This document shows positions 4,013 to 8,915 of a stretch of 64,000 nucleotides of DNA, in pieces. The notes below the pieces were generated by a model, which searched no databases, was not told the origin of the DNA, and saw only the letters and a list, made by a program, of their open reading frames with translations. The position numbers were made by a program, and so were the translations under genes. The DNA comes from an uncultured Alphaproteobacteria bacterium (GTDB lineage: Bacteria > Pseudomonadota > Alphaproteobacteria > Micropepsales > Micropepsaceae), in the NCBI GenBank assembly GCA_903857685.1, contig CAIOFO010000019.1:289-64288 (forward strand), given 5' to 3'. The number at the start of each line of letters is the position of its first letter. Position 1 is the stretch's first letter.

Positions 4013-4618
4013 ATGCGCCTGATCGGAATGCTGGATTCGCCCTATGTGCGCCGGGTGGCGGTGTCGCTGAAATTCATGGGCCTGCCGTTTAGCCATGAAC
4101 CGGTTTCGGTGTTCCGCCATTACGACCATTTCGCCAGCATCAACCCGGTGGTGAAGGCCCCCACACTGGTGACGGATGACGGCGTGGTGCTGATGGATTC
4201 CACCCTGATCCTGGAATATGCCGAGCGCCTGGCGGCGCCGGAGCGACGGCTGTCGCCGACCGGCGCGGCGGAATTTGCGCGCAGCCAGCGGATTGTCGGG
4301 TTGGTGCTGGTGGCCTGCGAAAAGTCGGTGCAGATCGTTTATGAAAACATGCGGCCGGAAGAAAAACGTCACCAGCCCTGGCTGGACCGGGTGAGCAGGC
4401 AGCTGAATACCGCCTGGGGCCTGATCGAGGCGGAAACCGGCAAGGGATGGTATGGCGGCAGCCGTGCGATGGCGGCGGACATCGCGGTGGCGACGGCCTG
4501 GACCTTCGGCCAGCATGTGGTGGCCGACACGGTGCGCGCCAGCGATTACCCCGCCGTCGCGGCGCTGGTGGCGCGCGCCGAAGCGCTGCCCGAATTCCTG
4601 GGCACGCCGCTGGACTAG
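4013..4618 (+). CDS. Glutathione S-transferase family protein
   Basis: MLDSPYVRRV, NPVVKAPTL, DSTLILEY; RBS AAGGAG upstream. Confidence 0.9.
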   Translation: MRLIGMLDSPYVRRVAVSLKFMGLPFSHEPVSVFRHYDHFASINPVVKAPTLVTDDGVVLMDSTLILEYAERLAAPERRLSPTGAAEFARSQRIVGLVLVACEKSVQIVYENMRPEEKRHQPWLDRVSRQLNTAWGLIEAETGKGWYGGSRAMAADIAVATAWTFGQHVVADTVRASDYPAVAALVARAEALPEFLGTPLD

Positions 4619-4640
4619 CCTTTAATGGCATTTTCGGGCG

Positions 4641-4770
4641 CGGGCCGCTCGCTCAAGCTCGCGGCGTTGGCTTAGCTTTTCTTGGCGAACGGCAGAGAGC
4701 CTAGAAAAGCTTGCCCAATCCGAGCGCAGCGAGGATGTGTCGCTCAAAATGGTCCGCCGGACCATTTTGC
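4641..4770. repeat. Multi-hairpin REP-like intergenic element
   Basis: Perfect 11-bp hairpin CAAAATGGTCC-gcc-GGACCATTTTG (4745-4769), AGCTTTTCT...AGAAAAGCT stem, CCGAGCGCAGCGAGG motif. Confidence 0.5.
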
Positions 4771-4825
4771 CCGCTTTGCGGACCGCTCCTCACTTGCTAG
4801 AAGCATCCGCAAAGAAAGGCCTTCC

Positions 4826-6127
4826 ATGATCCCCCGCTATGCCCGCCCGGAAATGACCGAAATCTGGTCGCCCGAGAGCAAGTTCCGCATCTGGTTCGAG
4901 ATCGAGGCGCATTCCACCGATGCCCTGGCGGAACTGGGCGTGGTGCCGAAGGAAGCGGCCAAAAAGCTCTGGGAAAAGGGCAAAGACGCCAAATTCGACG
5001 TGGCGCGGATCGATGAGATCGAGCGCGAGGTCAAGCATGACGTGATAGCCTTCCTCACCCATCTGTCCGAGATCGTGGGCCCGGAAGCGCGCTTTGTGCA
5101 CCAGGGCATGACCAGCTCGGATGTGCTGGACACCTGTTTGAATGTGCAGATGGCGCGGGCGGCGGACCTGTTGATCGCCGATACCGATGCGCTGTTGGCG
5201 GCGCTGAAGAAGCGGGCGATGGAATACAAGATGACGCCCACCATCGGGCGCAGCCACGGCATCCATGCCGAGCCCACCACCTTCGGCGTCAAGCTGGCCG
5301 GATTTTACGCCGAGTTCGCCAGAGCCCGCGCCCGGCTGGTGACGGCCCGCGCCGAGATCGCCACCTGCGCCATTTCCGGCGCGGTCGGCACCTTCGCCAA
5401 TATCGATCCACGCGTGGAAGAGTATGTCGCGCAGAAAATGAATCTGGCGGTCGAGCCGGTGTCCACCCAGATCATTCCGCGCGACCGCCATGCCGCCTAT
5501 TTCGCGGCGCTGGGCGTGGTGGCGTCTTCCCTGGAAAGGCTGGCGGTGGAAATCCGCCATCTGCAGCGCACCGAAGTGCTGGAAGCGGAGGAATATTTTT
5601 CCCCCGGCCAGAAAGGATCCTCCGCCATGCCGCACAAGCGCAACCCGGTGCTGACCGAAAACGTCACCGGCCTGGCGCGCATGGTGCGGGCCTATGTGCT
5701 GCCCGCGATGGAAAATGTGGCGCTGTGGCATGAGCGGGACATCTCGCACTCTTCGGTCGAGCGCTATATCGGCCCGGACGCCACCATCACACTGGACTTT
5801 GCGCTGGCGCGGATGACCGGGGTGATCGACAAGCTGGTGGTTTACCCCAAGCGCATGCAGGAGAATCTGGACAAGACCCAGGGGCTGGTGCACAGCCAGC
5901 GCGTGCTGCTGGCGCTGACACAGGCGGGGATCGCGCGGGAGGATTCCTATCGCCTGGTGCAGCGCAACGCCATGCGCACCTGGAACGGCGAAGGCCCGCT
6001 GCTGGAGCTTCTGAAGGCCGATCCGGAGGTGGCGGGCAAGGTGCCGCCCGAAAAGCTGGATGCTATGTTCGACCTTGGCTATCACCTGAAACAGGTGGAC
6101 ACGATCTTCAAGCGCGTCTTCGGCTGA
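4826..6127 (+). CDS. purB: Adenylosuccinate lyase
   Basis: MIPRYARPEM start, KHDVIAFL, GRSHGIHAEP, GSSAMPHKRNP signature. Confidence 0.97.
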   Translation: MIPRYARPEMTEIWSPESKFRIWFEIEAHSTDALAELGVVPKEAAKKLWEKGKDAKFDVARIDEIEREVKHDVIAFLTHLSEIVGPEARFVHQGMTSSDVLDTCLNVQMARAADLLIADTDALLAALKKRAMEYKMTPTIGRSHGIHAEPTTFGVKLAGFYAEFARARARLVTARAEIATCAISGAVGTFANIDPRVEEYVAQKMNLAVEPVSTQIIPRDRHAAYFAALGVVASSLERLAVEIRHLQRTEVLEAEEYFSPGQKGSSAMPHKRNPVLTENVTGLARMVRAYVLPAMENVALWHERDISHSSVERYIGPDATITLDFALARMTGVIDKLVVYPKRMQENLDKTQGLVHSQRVLLALTQAGIAREDSYRLVQRNAMRTWNGEGPLLELLKADPEVAGKVPPEKLDAMFDLGYHLKQVDTIFKRVFG

Positions 6128-6128
6128 C

Positions 6129-6536
6129 ATGCGGGAGCAGACGCAAAAATTGATCCGCGCCTATTACGCGGCCTTCAACGCCAAGGACATGGACGGCTTT
6201 CTCGCCCTCCTGGCCGAGGATGTGGTCCATGACATAAACCTGGGCGGGCGTGAACACGGCAAGAAGACCTTTGCCGCCTTCCTGACGCGCATGAACCTTT
6301 GCTATGACGAAGAAATCGTGGACCTAGCGGTGATGAGCAATGACGATGGCAGCCGCGCCAGCGCCGAATTCACCGTGCTGGGCAAATATCTTGTCGCCGA
6401 CAGCGGCTTGCCGCCCGCCCATGGCCAGAGCTACCGGTTGCCGGCGGGAGCCTTTTTCGAGATCAGGGGTGGCAGGATCGCGCGCATTTCCAACTATTAT
6501 AACCTGGAAGACTGGCTGAAGCAGGTTGCCGTATGA
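6129..6536 (+). CDS. SnoaL/NTF2-like (ketosteroid isomerase-related) protein
   Basis: YYAAFNAKDMDGFLALLAEDVVHD, LPAGAFFEIRGGRIARISNYYN pattern; starts 1 nt after purB stop. Confidence 0.8.
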   Translation: MREQTQKLIRAYYAAFNAKDMDGFLALLAEDVVHDINLGGREHGKKTFAAFLTRMNLCYDEEIVDLAVMSNDDGSRASAEFTVLGKYLVADSGLPPAHGQSYRLPAGAFFEIRGGRIARISNYYNLEDWLKQVAV

Positions 6537-7120
6537 ACGTCACGGTCACCCGGTTGACCGGCGAGGCGATACGAGCGCGGCTGGATGATCTTGCTAAGCT
6601 GCGCATCGAGGTCTTCCGCGCCTGGCCCTATCTCTACAAGGGCGCCATGGCCTATGAGCGGCAATATCTGCCGCGCTATGCCGAGGCGAAGACCGGCACC
6701 CTGGTCGTGGCGCAGACTGACGGCAAGATCGTCGGCGCCTCAACCGCGCTGGGCCTGGATGAAGAAGACGATTACATCCAGAAGCCTTTTGTCGATGCCG
6801 GCATGGACCTGACAAAGATTTTCTATTTCGGCGAGTCGGTGGTGCTGCCGGAGTATCGCGGCCAAGGCATCGGCATCCGCTTTTTCCAGGAGCGCGAGGC
6901 GGCGGCGCGCGAGCATGGCTATACCCAGACCAGTTTCTGCAGCGTGGTGCGGCCGGACAATCATCCCGCCCGGCCCAAGGATTATTTGCCGCTGAACAAT
7001 TTCTGGAAGCGGCGCGGTTATGTCCAGCGGCCGGACCTGGTGGCAAAATTTTCCTGGCGCGATATCGGCGAGCGCGGCGAGAGCGAAAAGCCCATGATTT
7101 ACTGGATGAAAACGCTTTGA
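6533..7120 (+). CDS. GNAT-family N-acyltransferase
   Basis: Acyl-CoA motif A VVLPEYRGQGIG; FWKRRGY; ATGA overlap with upstream gene. Confidence 0.85.
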   Translation: MNVTVTRLTGEAIRARLDDLAKLRIEVFRAWPYLYKGAMAYERQYLPRYAEAKTGTLVVAQTDGKIVGASTALGLDEEDDYIQKPFVDAGMDLTKIFYFGESVVLPEYRGQGIGIRFFQEREAAAREHGYTQTSFCSVVRPDNHPARPKDYLPLNNFWKRRGYVQRPDLVAKFSWRDIGERGESEKPMIYWMKTL

Positions 7121-8010
7121 AGCTGGCCTTGGCCCAGTATCCGATCAGGCGCTTCGCCAGTCTGGAAGAGTGGCAGTCCGATACCGAAAATTGGGTGGCG
7201 CGGGCCGCGAATGATGGCGCCACGTTTCTGTCCTTTCCCGAATATGGCGGCATGGCGCTGACGTCGCTGCTGCCGGTGGCGCTGCAGCAGGATCTGCGCA
7301 GGCAGATTCCGGCGCTGGAAGAATTTCATGCCGATTATGTCGCCACGTTTGCCGCGCTGGCGGTAAAGCATGGAGTTTATATTCAGGCGCCCAGCCTGCC
7401 GGTGGTGGTGCCCGATTCCACAAACAACAAGGTTCATAACCGCGCCTATCTTCTGTCGCCTTCAGGCAAGCTGGACTTCCAGGACAAGCGTCAGATGACC
7501 CGCTTTGAGAATGAGCAATGGGGCATCAGCGGCGGCAGCGATCTGAAGGTCTTTGACATTGGCGAAACCAGGATCGGCATTGCCGTCTGTTACGACATAG
7601 AATTTCCCCTGATCGCCCATGCCATGGCGGCTGAGGGCGCCGAGCTGATCCTGGCGCCCAGCTGTACCGACACGCTGGCCGGGGCAAACCGCGTTCATGT
7701 CGGGGCGCGGGCGCGGGCGCTGGAGAATCAGGTCTATGTCGCCCTCGCACCCACGGTCGGGGACGCGTCCTGGTCATCGGCGGTGGATGTAAATATCGGC
7801 TGGGCGGCGGTTTACAGCGCGCCGGATCGTCGTTTTCCCGATGACGGCATCCTGGCCAAAGGCGATTTGAACAAGCCGGGCTGGGTGACGGCGGCGCTGG
7901 ATTTTGCCGCCCTGAAAAGCGCGCGGGAGCAGGCCCAGGTGTTTACCGCCCGAGATTGGGACGCGCAGGGTTTGCCGGGTCTTTCTGCCGCGATAGTTCC
8001 ATTGGCGTAA
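7117..8010 (+). CDS. Carbon-nitrogen hydrolase (nitrilase superfamily, RimI-associated class 12-like)
   Basis: Glu-Lys-Cys triad in FPEYG, QDKRQM, VCYDIEF; RARALENQ; TTG start overlaps GNAT stop. Confidence 0.85.
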   Translation: MKLALAQYPIRRFASLEEWQSDTENWVARAANDGATFLSFPEYGGMALTSLLPVALQQDLRRQIPALEEFHADYVATFAALAVKHGVYIQAPSLPVVVPDSTNNKVHNRAYLLSPSGKLDFQDKRQMTRFENEQWGISGGSDLKVFDIGETRIGIAVCYDIEFPLIAHAMAAEGAELILAPSCTDTLAGANRVHVGARARALENQVYVALAPTVGDASWSSAVDVNIGWAAVYSAPDRRFPDDGILAKGDLNKPGWVTAALDFAALKSAREQAQVFTARDWDAQGLPGLSAAIVPLA

Positions 8011-8150
8011 GCCATTGATTTTGCACGATCCTGTGGACGGGAAGCCGCCATGCGCGGCTAACGGTCCCGGCGGCGTTGCTGTTGGCGGCGCGCATCCCTA
8101 AATTCAGTGCTCGCCGGGATACCTTCAGGCGAGCCCAAGGACACATCGCC

Positions 8151-8915
8151 ATGAAACGCCGCCGCGTCATCTACGAAGGCAAAGCCAAGATTCTATACGA
8201 AGGCACCGAGCCGGGCACCGTCATCCAGTATTTCAAGGACGACGCCACCGCCGGAAACGGCGCCAAGAAAGACACCATCGAGGGCAAGGGCGTCCTCAAC
8301 AACCGCATCAGCGAGTACCTGATGACGCAGCTGGCCGCCATCGGCGTGCCCACCCATTTCGTGCGCCGCCTGAACATGCGCGAGCAGCTGATCAAGGAAG
8401 TCGAGATCATTCCGCTGGAAGTGGTGGTGCGCAACATCGCCGCCGGTTCCATGTCCAAGCGGCTGGGGATCGAGGAAGGCACCGCCCTGCCCCGCTCCAT
8501 CATCGAATATTACTACAAGAATGACAGCCTGAACGATCCCTGGGTCAGCGAAGAGCATATTACCGCCTTCGGCTGGGCATCCCCGCAGGACCTGGACGAC
8601 ATGGTGAACCTCACCATCCGCATCAATGATTTTCTCTCGGGCCTGTTCCTGGGCGCCGGCATCAAGCTGGTGGATTTCAAGCTGGAATTCGGCCGGCTGT
8701 GGGAAAATGATTTCATGCGCATCGTGCTGGCCGACGAGATCAGCCCGGACAATTGCCGCTTGTGGGACGCCACCACCTCCGAGAAACTGGACAAGGACCG
8801 GTTCCGCCGCGACCTGGGCGGGGTGATCGAGGCCTATTCCGAAGTGGCCAGGCGCTTGGGAATCATGCCCGAATCGGTGCAAGGCGAGAATAAAGGTCCC
8901 GTTCTGGTCAAGTGA
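8151..8915 (+). CDS. purC: SAICAR synthetase
   Basis: [36 protein letters not shown]. Confidence 0.97.

Follow-up and report, generated by a model that had tools for sequence, protein, structure and literature searches.

Acetyltransferases of the GNAT superfamily, carbon-nitrogen hydrolases of the nitrilase superfamily and small proteins of the NTF2/SnoaL type all have well-known folds, and described relatives exist for each. Among the GNATs, these are PaiA, which acts on polyamines, the tabtoxin resistance protein TTR and the phosphinothricin acetyltransferase PAT/BAR. Among the hydrolases, they are Nit2 (omega-amidase) and the short-chain aliphatic amidases, represented by mouse Nit2, yeast Nit3, Nesterenkonia NitN and Pyrococcus PH0642. 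Among the NTF2/SnoaL-like proteins, there are three crystal structures from the long-established family TIGR02096. This study examines a locus that encodes one protein of each kind, in three consecutive genes at positions 6129-8010 of a 64,000-nucleotide stretch of contig CAIOFO010000019.1 (an uncultured alphaproteobacterium of the family Micropepsaceae; assembly GCA_903857685.1); the whole stretch is referred to as the window. The best explanation is that the three genes form a self-contained, horizontally moving accessory enzyme cassette, whose products would act in sequence on a small molecule and whose position behind purB is incidental; we give this reading a probability of roughly 0.6. 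The three-gene system and its tie to larger GNAT-hydrolase fusion proteins are apparently undescribed.

All three genes lie on the plus strand. The first (6129..6536) encodes an NTF2/SnoaL-like protein of 135 amino acids, the second (6533..7120) a GNAT N-acetyltransferase of 195 amino acids, and the third (7117..8010) a Nit2/amidase-like carbon-nitrogen hydrolase of 297 amino acids. The preceding gene on the same strand is purB, for adenylosuccinate lyase (4823..6127; TIGR00928, 504 bits); its stop codon TGA occupies 6125-6127 and is separated by a single base from the ATG at 6129. The two junctions inside the cassette are overlaps: ATGA at 6533-6536, where the GNAT start codon (ATG, 6533) lies on the TGA of the SnoaL-like reading frame, and TTGA at 7117-7120, where the hydrolase starts with TTG at 7117 and the GNAT stops with TGA at 7118-7120. 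After a spacer (8011..8150), the plus-strand gene purC follows (8151..8915; TIGR00081, 227 bits) and opens the series purC-purS-purQ-purL. Both purB and purC are host genes, outside the function of the cassette. Coordinates and overlaps are thus as described in the original prediction, which had placed the genes between purB and purC and noted an intact catalytic triad in the hydrolase.

How often the three genes are found together was assessed in two samples. A pattern scan with one genome per species gave at least 597 loci with a relative of the GNAT, the best 80 of which were examined with 8-kb flanks. An even sample of 401 Pseudomonadota genomes was searched with profiles of all three proteins (with a cut-off of E<=1e-82 for the cassette-type hydrolase), and 33 loci were fetched around its GNATs, each with its 8-kb neighbourhood. 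The GNAT occurs in 35 of the 401 genomes, about 9%, always as a single copy; TIGR02096 occurs in 27 and the cassette-type hydrolase in 29, and 22 genomes have all three. GNAT and TIGR02096 are both present in 25 genomes, with 10 having the GNAT only, 2 the SnoaL-like protein only and 364 neither; for GNAT and hydrolase, the corresponding numbers are 26, 9, 3 and 363. Physical adjacency follows the same pattern. In the 65 loci with full flanks among the best 80, the SnoaL-like gene is found just upstream of the GNAT in 48 and the hydrolase just downstream in 45, with both in 40 and neither in 12; of the 33 evenly sampled loci, 24 have the hydrolase next to the GNAT, 18 the SnoaL-like gene and 17 both. 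Where a partner is not adjacent, it may be found elsewhere in the genome (the SnoaL-like protein in G309, G089, G181 and G287, the hydrolase in G138).

The order SnoaL-GNAT-hydrolase recurs in Alphaproteobacteria, in Gammaproteobacteria (Methylophaga, Marinomonas, Alteromonas, Metapseudomonas and Rhodanobacter) and in Bacteroidota (Emticicia, Siphonobacter, Saprospiraceae and a flavobacterium). In a variant layout, the SnoaL-like gene is inverted and divergent from the GNAT-hydrolase pair, as seen in Rhizobiaceae, Mesorhizobium, Metapseudomonas and three loci of the Pseudomonadota sample (L120, L121 and L127; the further inverted cases are L012, L014, L018, L023, L034, L036, L040, L046, L049 and L073). 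The same genes recur across dozens of unrelated genomes, mostly in the same order and usually as overlapping neighbours; this is far more than chance would produce. They form a conserved, co-occurring functional unit, as the original prediction had proposed, and its own refuting condition, a lack of co-occurrence in other genomes, is clearly contradicted. TIGR02096 is essentially the dedicated partner of one GNAT family.

Gene fusions add to this picture. Domain scans and pairwise alignments identify SnoaL-GNAT fusions (P0254, whose SnoaL part is 53% identical to that of the window, and P0261), GNAT-SnoaL fusions in the reverse order (P0305, 41%, and P0311) and hydrolase-GNAT fusions (P0266 and P0273), all with domains homologous to the window proteins. 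All three components also come together on the 52-kb contig of P0305 (L119), where the GNAT-SnoaL fusion gene (5001-6002 of L119) overlaps a hydrolase gene downstream of it. The existence of fusions in both orders argues strongly that the SnoaL-like protein and the GNAT act together physically. With three arrangements available, such Rosetta-stone proteins can be used directly by experimenters. Three further fusion-like proteins are single cluster representatives and may be read-through gene calls: P0310 (633 amino acids, GNAT with HemL), P0270 (495 amino acids, GNAT with a glycerophosphodiester phosphodiesterase, GDPD) and P0264 (660 amino acids, GNAT with a Ser/Thr kinase and TPR).

Several points weigh against the reading of a three-part unit with sequential chemistry. 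The Fisher p values of about 1e-29 for co-occurrence overstate the association, since the genomes are related and phylogenetically non-independent, although the pattern still spans many families and genera. Neither partner is nearby at about a quarter of GNAT loci, and TIGR02096 is absent from 10 of the 35 GNAT genomes; from these two facts it follows that the GNAT can work without the SnoaL-like protein. Every chemical step proposed below is read from folds and conserved residues only. Nitrilase-superfamily enzymes such as Nit1 and biotinidase can hydrolyse secondary amides, so that removal of the GNAT's acyl group by the hydrolase is a possible activity. Finally, the cassette stays beside pur genes throughout the clade of the window and Ferrovibrio, and a lineage-specific functional tie to the purine genes is conceivable.

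The NTF2/SnoaL-like protein belongs to TIGR02096 (ketosteroid isomerase-related protein), with 127.3 bits against a curated cut-off of 97.1 and residues 6-134 aligned to profile positions 1-129; its Pfam match, SnoaL_2 (1.3e-18), is at fold level only. The structures 3F7X (Pseudomonas putida), 3I0Y (Xanthomonas campestris) and 3F8H (Silicibacter sp. TM1040) are all members of the same family, with full-length matches at E values from 7e-53 to 1.5e-42. They are structural-genomics entries of the Joint Center for Structural Genomics (JCSG), deposited as 'putative polyketide cyclase'; the name is a fold label, and the entries provide structures only. The only citing paper found mentions them as structural neighbours of another protein (PMC3955178). 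Thus, one component of the cassette has three crystal structures, yet its annotation is generic.

Invariant residues in the family are Y12, H34, Y59, E61, E80, Y87, Q100, Y102, R119, Y124, N125 and W129, with R76 nearly so. The candidate pocket residues (H34, E61, R76, E80, Q100 and R119) are polar or charged. Since the invariant residues are largely polar or aromatic, the protein would suit a small polar ligand better than a steroid or a polyketide. A role as a functional SnoaL polyketide cyclase was considered and rejected, given this polar and charged set of pocket candidates and Pfam matches that reach the fold only; no polyketide synthase or tailoring genes were found beside the cassette among the more than 110 loci examined.

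The GNAT, the hub of the cassette, is a clear member of its superfamily (Acetyltransf_1, 5.8e-9; 36.7 bits against a cut-off of 20.7). The coenzyme A (CoA)-binding motif A, which has the general form R/Q-x-x-G-x-G/A and binds the pyrophosphate of acetyl-CoA, is encoded at 6857-6874; the stretch R109-G110-Q-G112-I-G114 is invariant in the family. No NCBIfam family matched the GNAT and no solved close relative was found by sequence, whereas a profile search of 1.84 billion cluster representatives returned 661 members at E<=1e-30. The AlphaFold2 model has a mean predicted local distance difference test (pLDDT) value of 95.7 and matches 733 GNAT structures at E<=0.001; the best are PaiA, TTR, PAT/BAR, RimI and Naa60, with template-modelling (TM) scores of 0.55-0.66 and 13-18% identity. 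PaiA, TTR and PAT share the CoA-binding motif and the core with the window GNAT, but are only 13-16% identical to it; the invariant N-terminal helix and the loop insertion 139-163 are the window family's own.

Invariant residues outside motif A include L23, R24, F28, P32, Y33, Y35, E42, E101, S102, C136, R140, H144 and W158. Within the family-specific loop 139-163, R140, H144, P145, F157, W158, R161 and G162 are invariant and Y151 nearly so. This loop and the N-terminal motif L23-R24-x3-F28...P32-Y33-x-Y35 are likely acceptor-site elements. The original prediction had seen a weak resemblance between the N-terminus of the GNAT and the LRxxVF start of N-acyl amide synthases. The motif itself, L23-R24-x3-F28, is indeed invariant in the family, but the resemblance ends at this short stretch. 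An N-acyl amide or acyl-homoserine lactone synthase with a GNAT fold (LuxI, FeeM/NasY or OlsB type) was rejected as a candidate, since there is no Autoind_synth or Acetyltransf_5 match at E<=0.01 and no such enzyme among the top 50 Foldseek matches. In the model, the protein looks like a small-molecule N-acetyltransferase and not like an N-acyl amide synthase.

The hydrolase belongs to the nitrilase (carbon-nitrogen hydrolase) superfamily, as judged by the CN_hydrolase match (7e-28, 98 bits), an invariant catalytic tetrad and a fold similarity with TM of about 0.7. Glu42 (7240-7242), Lys124 (7486-7488), Glu131 (7507-7509) and Cys158 (7588-7590, TGT) are intact and invariant across 37 orthologues. 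The best sequence matches in the PDB come from the Nit2/short-chain amidase group (E about 1e-11), and the best folds for the AlphaFold2 model (pLDDT 95.7) are mouse Nit2 (2w1v), the Nesterenkonia amidase NitN, yeast Nit3 (1f89)/Nit2 and PH0642, with TM of about 0.7 and 21-23% identity. This modelled comparison places the protein nearest to amidases of small molecules and apart from filament-forming nitrilases, Lnt and N-terminal amidase.

Nit2 and the short-chain amidases have fold, size and Glu-Lys-Glu-Cys chemistry in common with the window hydrolase; unlike it, they have no GNAT and NTF2 protein partners. In the NCBIfam equivalog models (omega-amidase/Nit2, Nit1 and N-carbamoylputrescine amidase), the best scores remain well below the cut-offs, at 54.5/500 (deaminated glutathione amidase), 48.9/249 (amidohydrolase PRK10438), 40.7/355 and 40.5/410. 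The window hydrolase represents a branch separate from the Nit2, Nit1 and N-carbamoylputrescine amidase equivalogs.

These fold comparisons bear on whether the substrate could be a protein. The nitrilase superfamily includes the N-terminal amidase Nta1, and the GNAT fold matches include RimI and Naa60 as well as the protein acetyltransferase HP0935. One may envisage a pair of protein-modifying enzymes, the GNAT acetylating N-termini or lysines and the hydrolase removing the amide from N-terminal Asn/Gln or from side chains, by analogy with Nt-acetyltransferase and Nt-amidase in N-degron pathways; the housekeeping genes infA, lepA, gltX and rng, which neighbour the cassette in several lineages, would suit such a role. 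The hydrolase, however, resembles small-molecule amidases, and no N-terminal amidase appears among its top 50 fold matches. Moreover, small molecules are the substrates of PaiA and TTR, the top GNAT matches, and a small ligand is also suggested by the dedicated NTF2-like partner and its polar pocket. Protein modification is accordingly considered highly improbable.

The nearest paralogues of the window hydrolase are found in fusion proteins of about 520 amino acids. When the hydrolase profile is run against the 401 genomes, two separate score groups emerge, one at 275 bits or more (the cassette type) and one at 217-258 bits. The second comprises about 53 genomes with open frames of 515-580 codons; two examples (loci L153 and L154) are proteins of 517 and 533 amino acids with an N-terminal GNAT and a C-terminal hydrolase. 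The hydrolase domain of these proteins is 33% identical to the window hydrolase (E 1e-48), with the same catalytic tetrad. A GNAT is part of every such protein but comes from another GNAT family than that of the window, with 22% identity over motif A only, and there is no NTF2-like partner, whereas the window hydrolase stands alone, at 297 amino acids, with a SnoaL-like partner. We take these fusions to be Bacillus YhcX and nitrilase branch 12 (Pace and Brenner 2001). The only functional report found for such fusions is that Bacillus yhcX mutants produce 24-50% less indole-acetic acid (PMC4558970).

The link to GNAT-fused nitrilases made in the original prediction holds to the extent that the nearest paralogues are indeed GNAT-fused; as a separate protein in a well-separated score population, however, the window hydrolase is an unfused sister of that branch and not a member. 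Seven of the nine genomes with a window-type GNAT but no cassette hydrolase carry the fusion protein, compared with 46 of 392 elsewhere. This suggests that cassette-type and fusion-type hydrolases can substitute for each other. In the seven genomes (G125, G173, G182, G308, G309, G338 and G446), the fusion gene is unlinked to the GNAT. P0273 joins a fusion-type hydrolase (49% identical to L154) to a window-type GNAT.

Solving either the cassette or the fusions would probably explain both. A more far-reaching proposal makes the NTF2-like protein and the GNAT the two obligate subunits of one enzyme, fused in some species, which together with the GNAT-associated amidase clade would constitute an unrecognised, widespread metabolite-handling system; the chemistry of this system would be shared with the fusions of about 520 amino acids. 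It might repair or detoxify a common reactive amine or amide, or make a new N-acetylated cyclic molecule. We regard this as speculative and on balance unlikely.

The original prediction had proposed a make/break scheme: an N-acyl group that the GNAT puts on a metabolite or protein would be taken off again by the hydrolase, the SnoaL-like protein would bind the same ligand, and the system would possibly serve to repair damaged purine intermediates. Translational coupling to purB is tight in the window and its relatives, and Nit2 is the top fold match of the hydrolase; relatives of Nit1 and Nit2 are metabolite-repair enzymes. The cassette also usually sits among housekeeping genes without transporters or dedicated regulators, and it stays near pur genes across the clade of the window and Ferrovibrio. 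Comparison with other genomes speaks against the scheme.

Within the same GTDB genus, purC is 85-96% identical to that of the window in 29 genomes, and wherever the contig allows, purB is directly upstream of purC, with a gap of about 500 bp and no cassette; apart from one weak match, no GNAT was found in 24 other species of the genus. In most species of the genus, the purB-purC cluster is thus the same but contains no cassette. Across the 33 loci of the even sample, purB, purC, purS, purQ and purL are all absent from the surrounding 8 kb. Among the 80 loci, the only pur gene near the cassette outside the clade of the window and Ferrovibrio is in one Novosphingobium locus, where purC is 4 kb away on the opposite strand. 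In Ferrovibrio, the nearest named relative, the cassette follows purC-purS-purQ-purL; the GNAT tree joins Ferrovibrio, as sister, to the window clade with high support (100/99), so that the linkage to pur genes counts as a single historical association.

The place among purine genes is an insertion site specific to this lineage, and membership in an operon for purine biosynthesis or purine repair was rejected on the evidence of the cassette-free clusters in the genus and the absence of pur genes from the even sample. With this, a false lead is removed. The make/break scheme has a further difficulty, in that enzymes adding and removing the same group from one operon would burn acetyl-CoA futilely; its purine-repair form is very unlikely, and hydrolase removal of the GNAT's acyl group is in general less likely than sequential steps on one substrate.

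The structure of the insertion site can be traced in relatives. In same-genus genomes (L086-L093), the gap of about 500 bp between purB and purC is occupied by a small minus-strand gene whose product, of about 105 amino acids, is the ATPase inhibitor zeta subunit (PF07345); in relatives with the cassette, this gene comes between the cassette and purC. In metagenomic relatives with a GNAT 68-75% identical to that of the window, the order is RadC-purB-SnoaL-GNAT-hydrolase-(zeta, minus strand)-purC-purS-purQ-purL-bolA, with a 4-nucleotide overlap between purB and the SnoaL-like gene; the zeta gene is at 7457-7771 in L158 and at 7457-7777 in L160. Because the zeta gene is found between hydrolase and purC in these relatives, the cassette sits between purB and the zeta gene, which has additionally been lost from this site in the window and in L157. 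The only copy detected in the window genome is on another contig (G000:C10:34250-34537). In the window, the spacer at 8011-8150 occupies the place where relatives hold the minus-strand zeta gene, and its likeness to their purC leader is limited to the last 45 nucleotides or so. The GC (guanine plus cytosine) content is 0.59-0.61 in the cassette and 0.60-0.65 in the flanks, with no clear foreign signature.

The reading we prefer, an accessory cassette acting in sequence on one small molecule, can be formulated as follows. The GNAT would use acetyl-CoA, bound through R-G-x-G-x-G, to N-acetylate the primary amine of a small polar metabolite, probably an anionic one because the family loop 139-163 contains many invariant Arg, His and Tyr residues. 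The NTF2/SnoaL-like protein would work physically with the GNAT, either isomerising, cyclising or dehydrating the same molecule or presenting it to the GNAT. The Nit2-like hydrolase would cleave a terminal amide, carbamoyl or nitrile C-N bond of this molecule via a thioacyl intermediate on Cys158. These steps would be sequential on one substrate and would serve detoxification, metabolite clean-up or salvage, not a futile cycle of addition and removal; the position behind purB may only supply expression, by read-through and translational coupling. Housekeeping surroundings and the general lack of transporters favour clean-up, detoxification or salvage over nutrient catabolism.

The neighbourhood gives few further clues. 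De novo clustering of open reading frames (ORFs) in the 80 loci and a Pfam tally of 146 flanking ORFs in the 33 even loci reveal no fourth recurrent partner beyond lineage-specific synteny; in the same two analyses, no transporters, dedicated regulators or aminotransferases recur as conserved partners. In Rhodobacterales, the context is stable: (hisD)-UPF0262-low-molecular-weight phosphatase-[cassette]-infA-maf-RNase G (rng)-yacG, as seen at loci among L120-L152. Ruegeria pomeroyi DSS-3 has the same context on its megaplasmid (L115, 71744-73649). In Agrobacterium loci, a small XRE/cupin-type regulator is found beside the cassette, and lepA follows the hydrolase.

A biosynthetic role could also be imagined, in which the GNAT acetylates an amine, the NTF2-like protein cyclises or dehydrates the N-acetyl product and the hydrolase prepares the precursor, leading to a new small cyclic metabolite that serves as solute or signal. 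NTF2-fold enzymes include cyclases and dehydratases such as SnoaL and scytalone dehydratase, and the SnoaL/GNAT fusions in both orders fit a direct hand-over of the GNAT product. Marine or halophilic bacteria are numerous among the carriers (for example Methylophaga, Marinomonas, Ruegeria and Alteromonas). The ectoine pathway (EctB-EctA-EctC) provides an analogy, since there, too, a GNAT N-acetylates an aminated small molecule, which a small partner enzyme then cyclises. The analogy goes no further: the sequences have nothing but the GNAT fold in common, EctC belongs to the cupins and not to the NTF2 proteins, and ectoine is synthesised without a hydrolase. The aminotransferase-GNAT fusion P0310 was considered as a clue to an ectoine-like route and rejected, since its aminotransferase is HemL (glutamate-1-semialdehyde aminomutase) and the single representative is probably a read-through gene call. 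Moreover, freshwater and soil bacteria commonly carry the cassette too, Marinobacter and Halomonas, although halophiles, mostly have only the GNAT, and no transporter, regulator or precursor-supplying gene recurs beside the cassette in the two locus samples. A biosynthetic cassette is therefore rather unlikely.

The distribution of the cassette indicates horizontal movement. In the GNAT tree, Bacteroidota branch off in at least three places, a rhizobial clade includes gammaproteobacteria, and both groups nest among Alphaproteobacteria; this nesting indicates that the cassette moves between lineages. A mobile copy is found on a conjugative IncP plasmid of Aeromonas caviae from sewer water (L116, NZ_CP068231.1, 23834-25738), where the surrounding island carries formaldehyde-detoxification genes (frmR, frmA-like, fghA and a gene for glutathione-independent formaldehyde dehydrogenase). 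A LysR regulator gene lies divergently upstream, making this one of the few loci with an adjacent regulator. The combination of LysR gene and formaldehyde-detoxification context could be a clue to the inducer.

Patchy, horizontally transferred occurrence, including this plasmid-borne copy with its divergent LysR gene inside a detoxification island, would also be expected of antimetabolite resistance. In that case, the GNAT would inactivate an amino-acid-like toxin of plant, algal or microbial origin, as TTR and PAT do, and the other two proteins would complete its breakdown; TTR, PAT and BAR are among the best GNAT folds. However, most loci have no regulator and lie among housekeeping genes, and there is no toxin candidate to name. 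The proposal overlaps the best explanation, from which it departs only as to where the substrate comes from; in this specific form, it is very unlikely.

As the original prediction had stated, no function is assigned to the triplet: RefSeq names are generic, and searches of the literature by domain names, structures, family, product names and nitrilase branch 12 found nothing on the three-gene cassette. It can be described as a well-supported, widespread 'conserved unknown' and not a purine system, with no surprising mechanism in hand. The cassette is present in the model organisms Ruegeria pomeroyi DSS-3 (SPO_RS20145-20155) and Agrobacterium; the JCSG SnoaL structures suggest that Pseudomonas putida and Xanthomonas can be added to these.

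With respect to expression, the junctions (a 1-nucleotide gap followed by two 4-nucleotide overlaps) would fit co-translation with purB, and no promoter- or terminator-like sites above shuffled expectation were found within 4400-8400. No RNA runs with the window organism itself were found; low-depth contigs from relatives are available, with soil, peat and permafrost metatranscriptome contigs of 85-95% identity covering parts of all three cassette genes. A 487-nucleotide soil metatranscriptome contig (run X23, record 12; 88% identical) spans 5992-6461 and so runs from the end of purB into the SnoaL-like gene. It lends weak support to co-transcription of these two genes in a relative; as a counterpoint, this sole bridging contig, at low depth, could stem from DNA carry-over.

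Regarding the upstream boundary, the longest purB reading frame starts at TTG 4682, which adds 47 amino acids beyond homologues. Since these have 433-434 amino acids and lack the extra residues, the true start is probably ATG 4823 (MIPRYARPEM...). Automatic annotation could carry the long form of purB, with the additional segment 4682-4822.

The window organism has been detected in freshwater and lake metagenomes. Relatives with the same junction between purB and the cassette are present, and apparently transcribed, in soil as well as in lakes.

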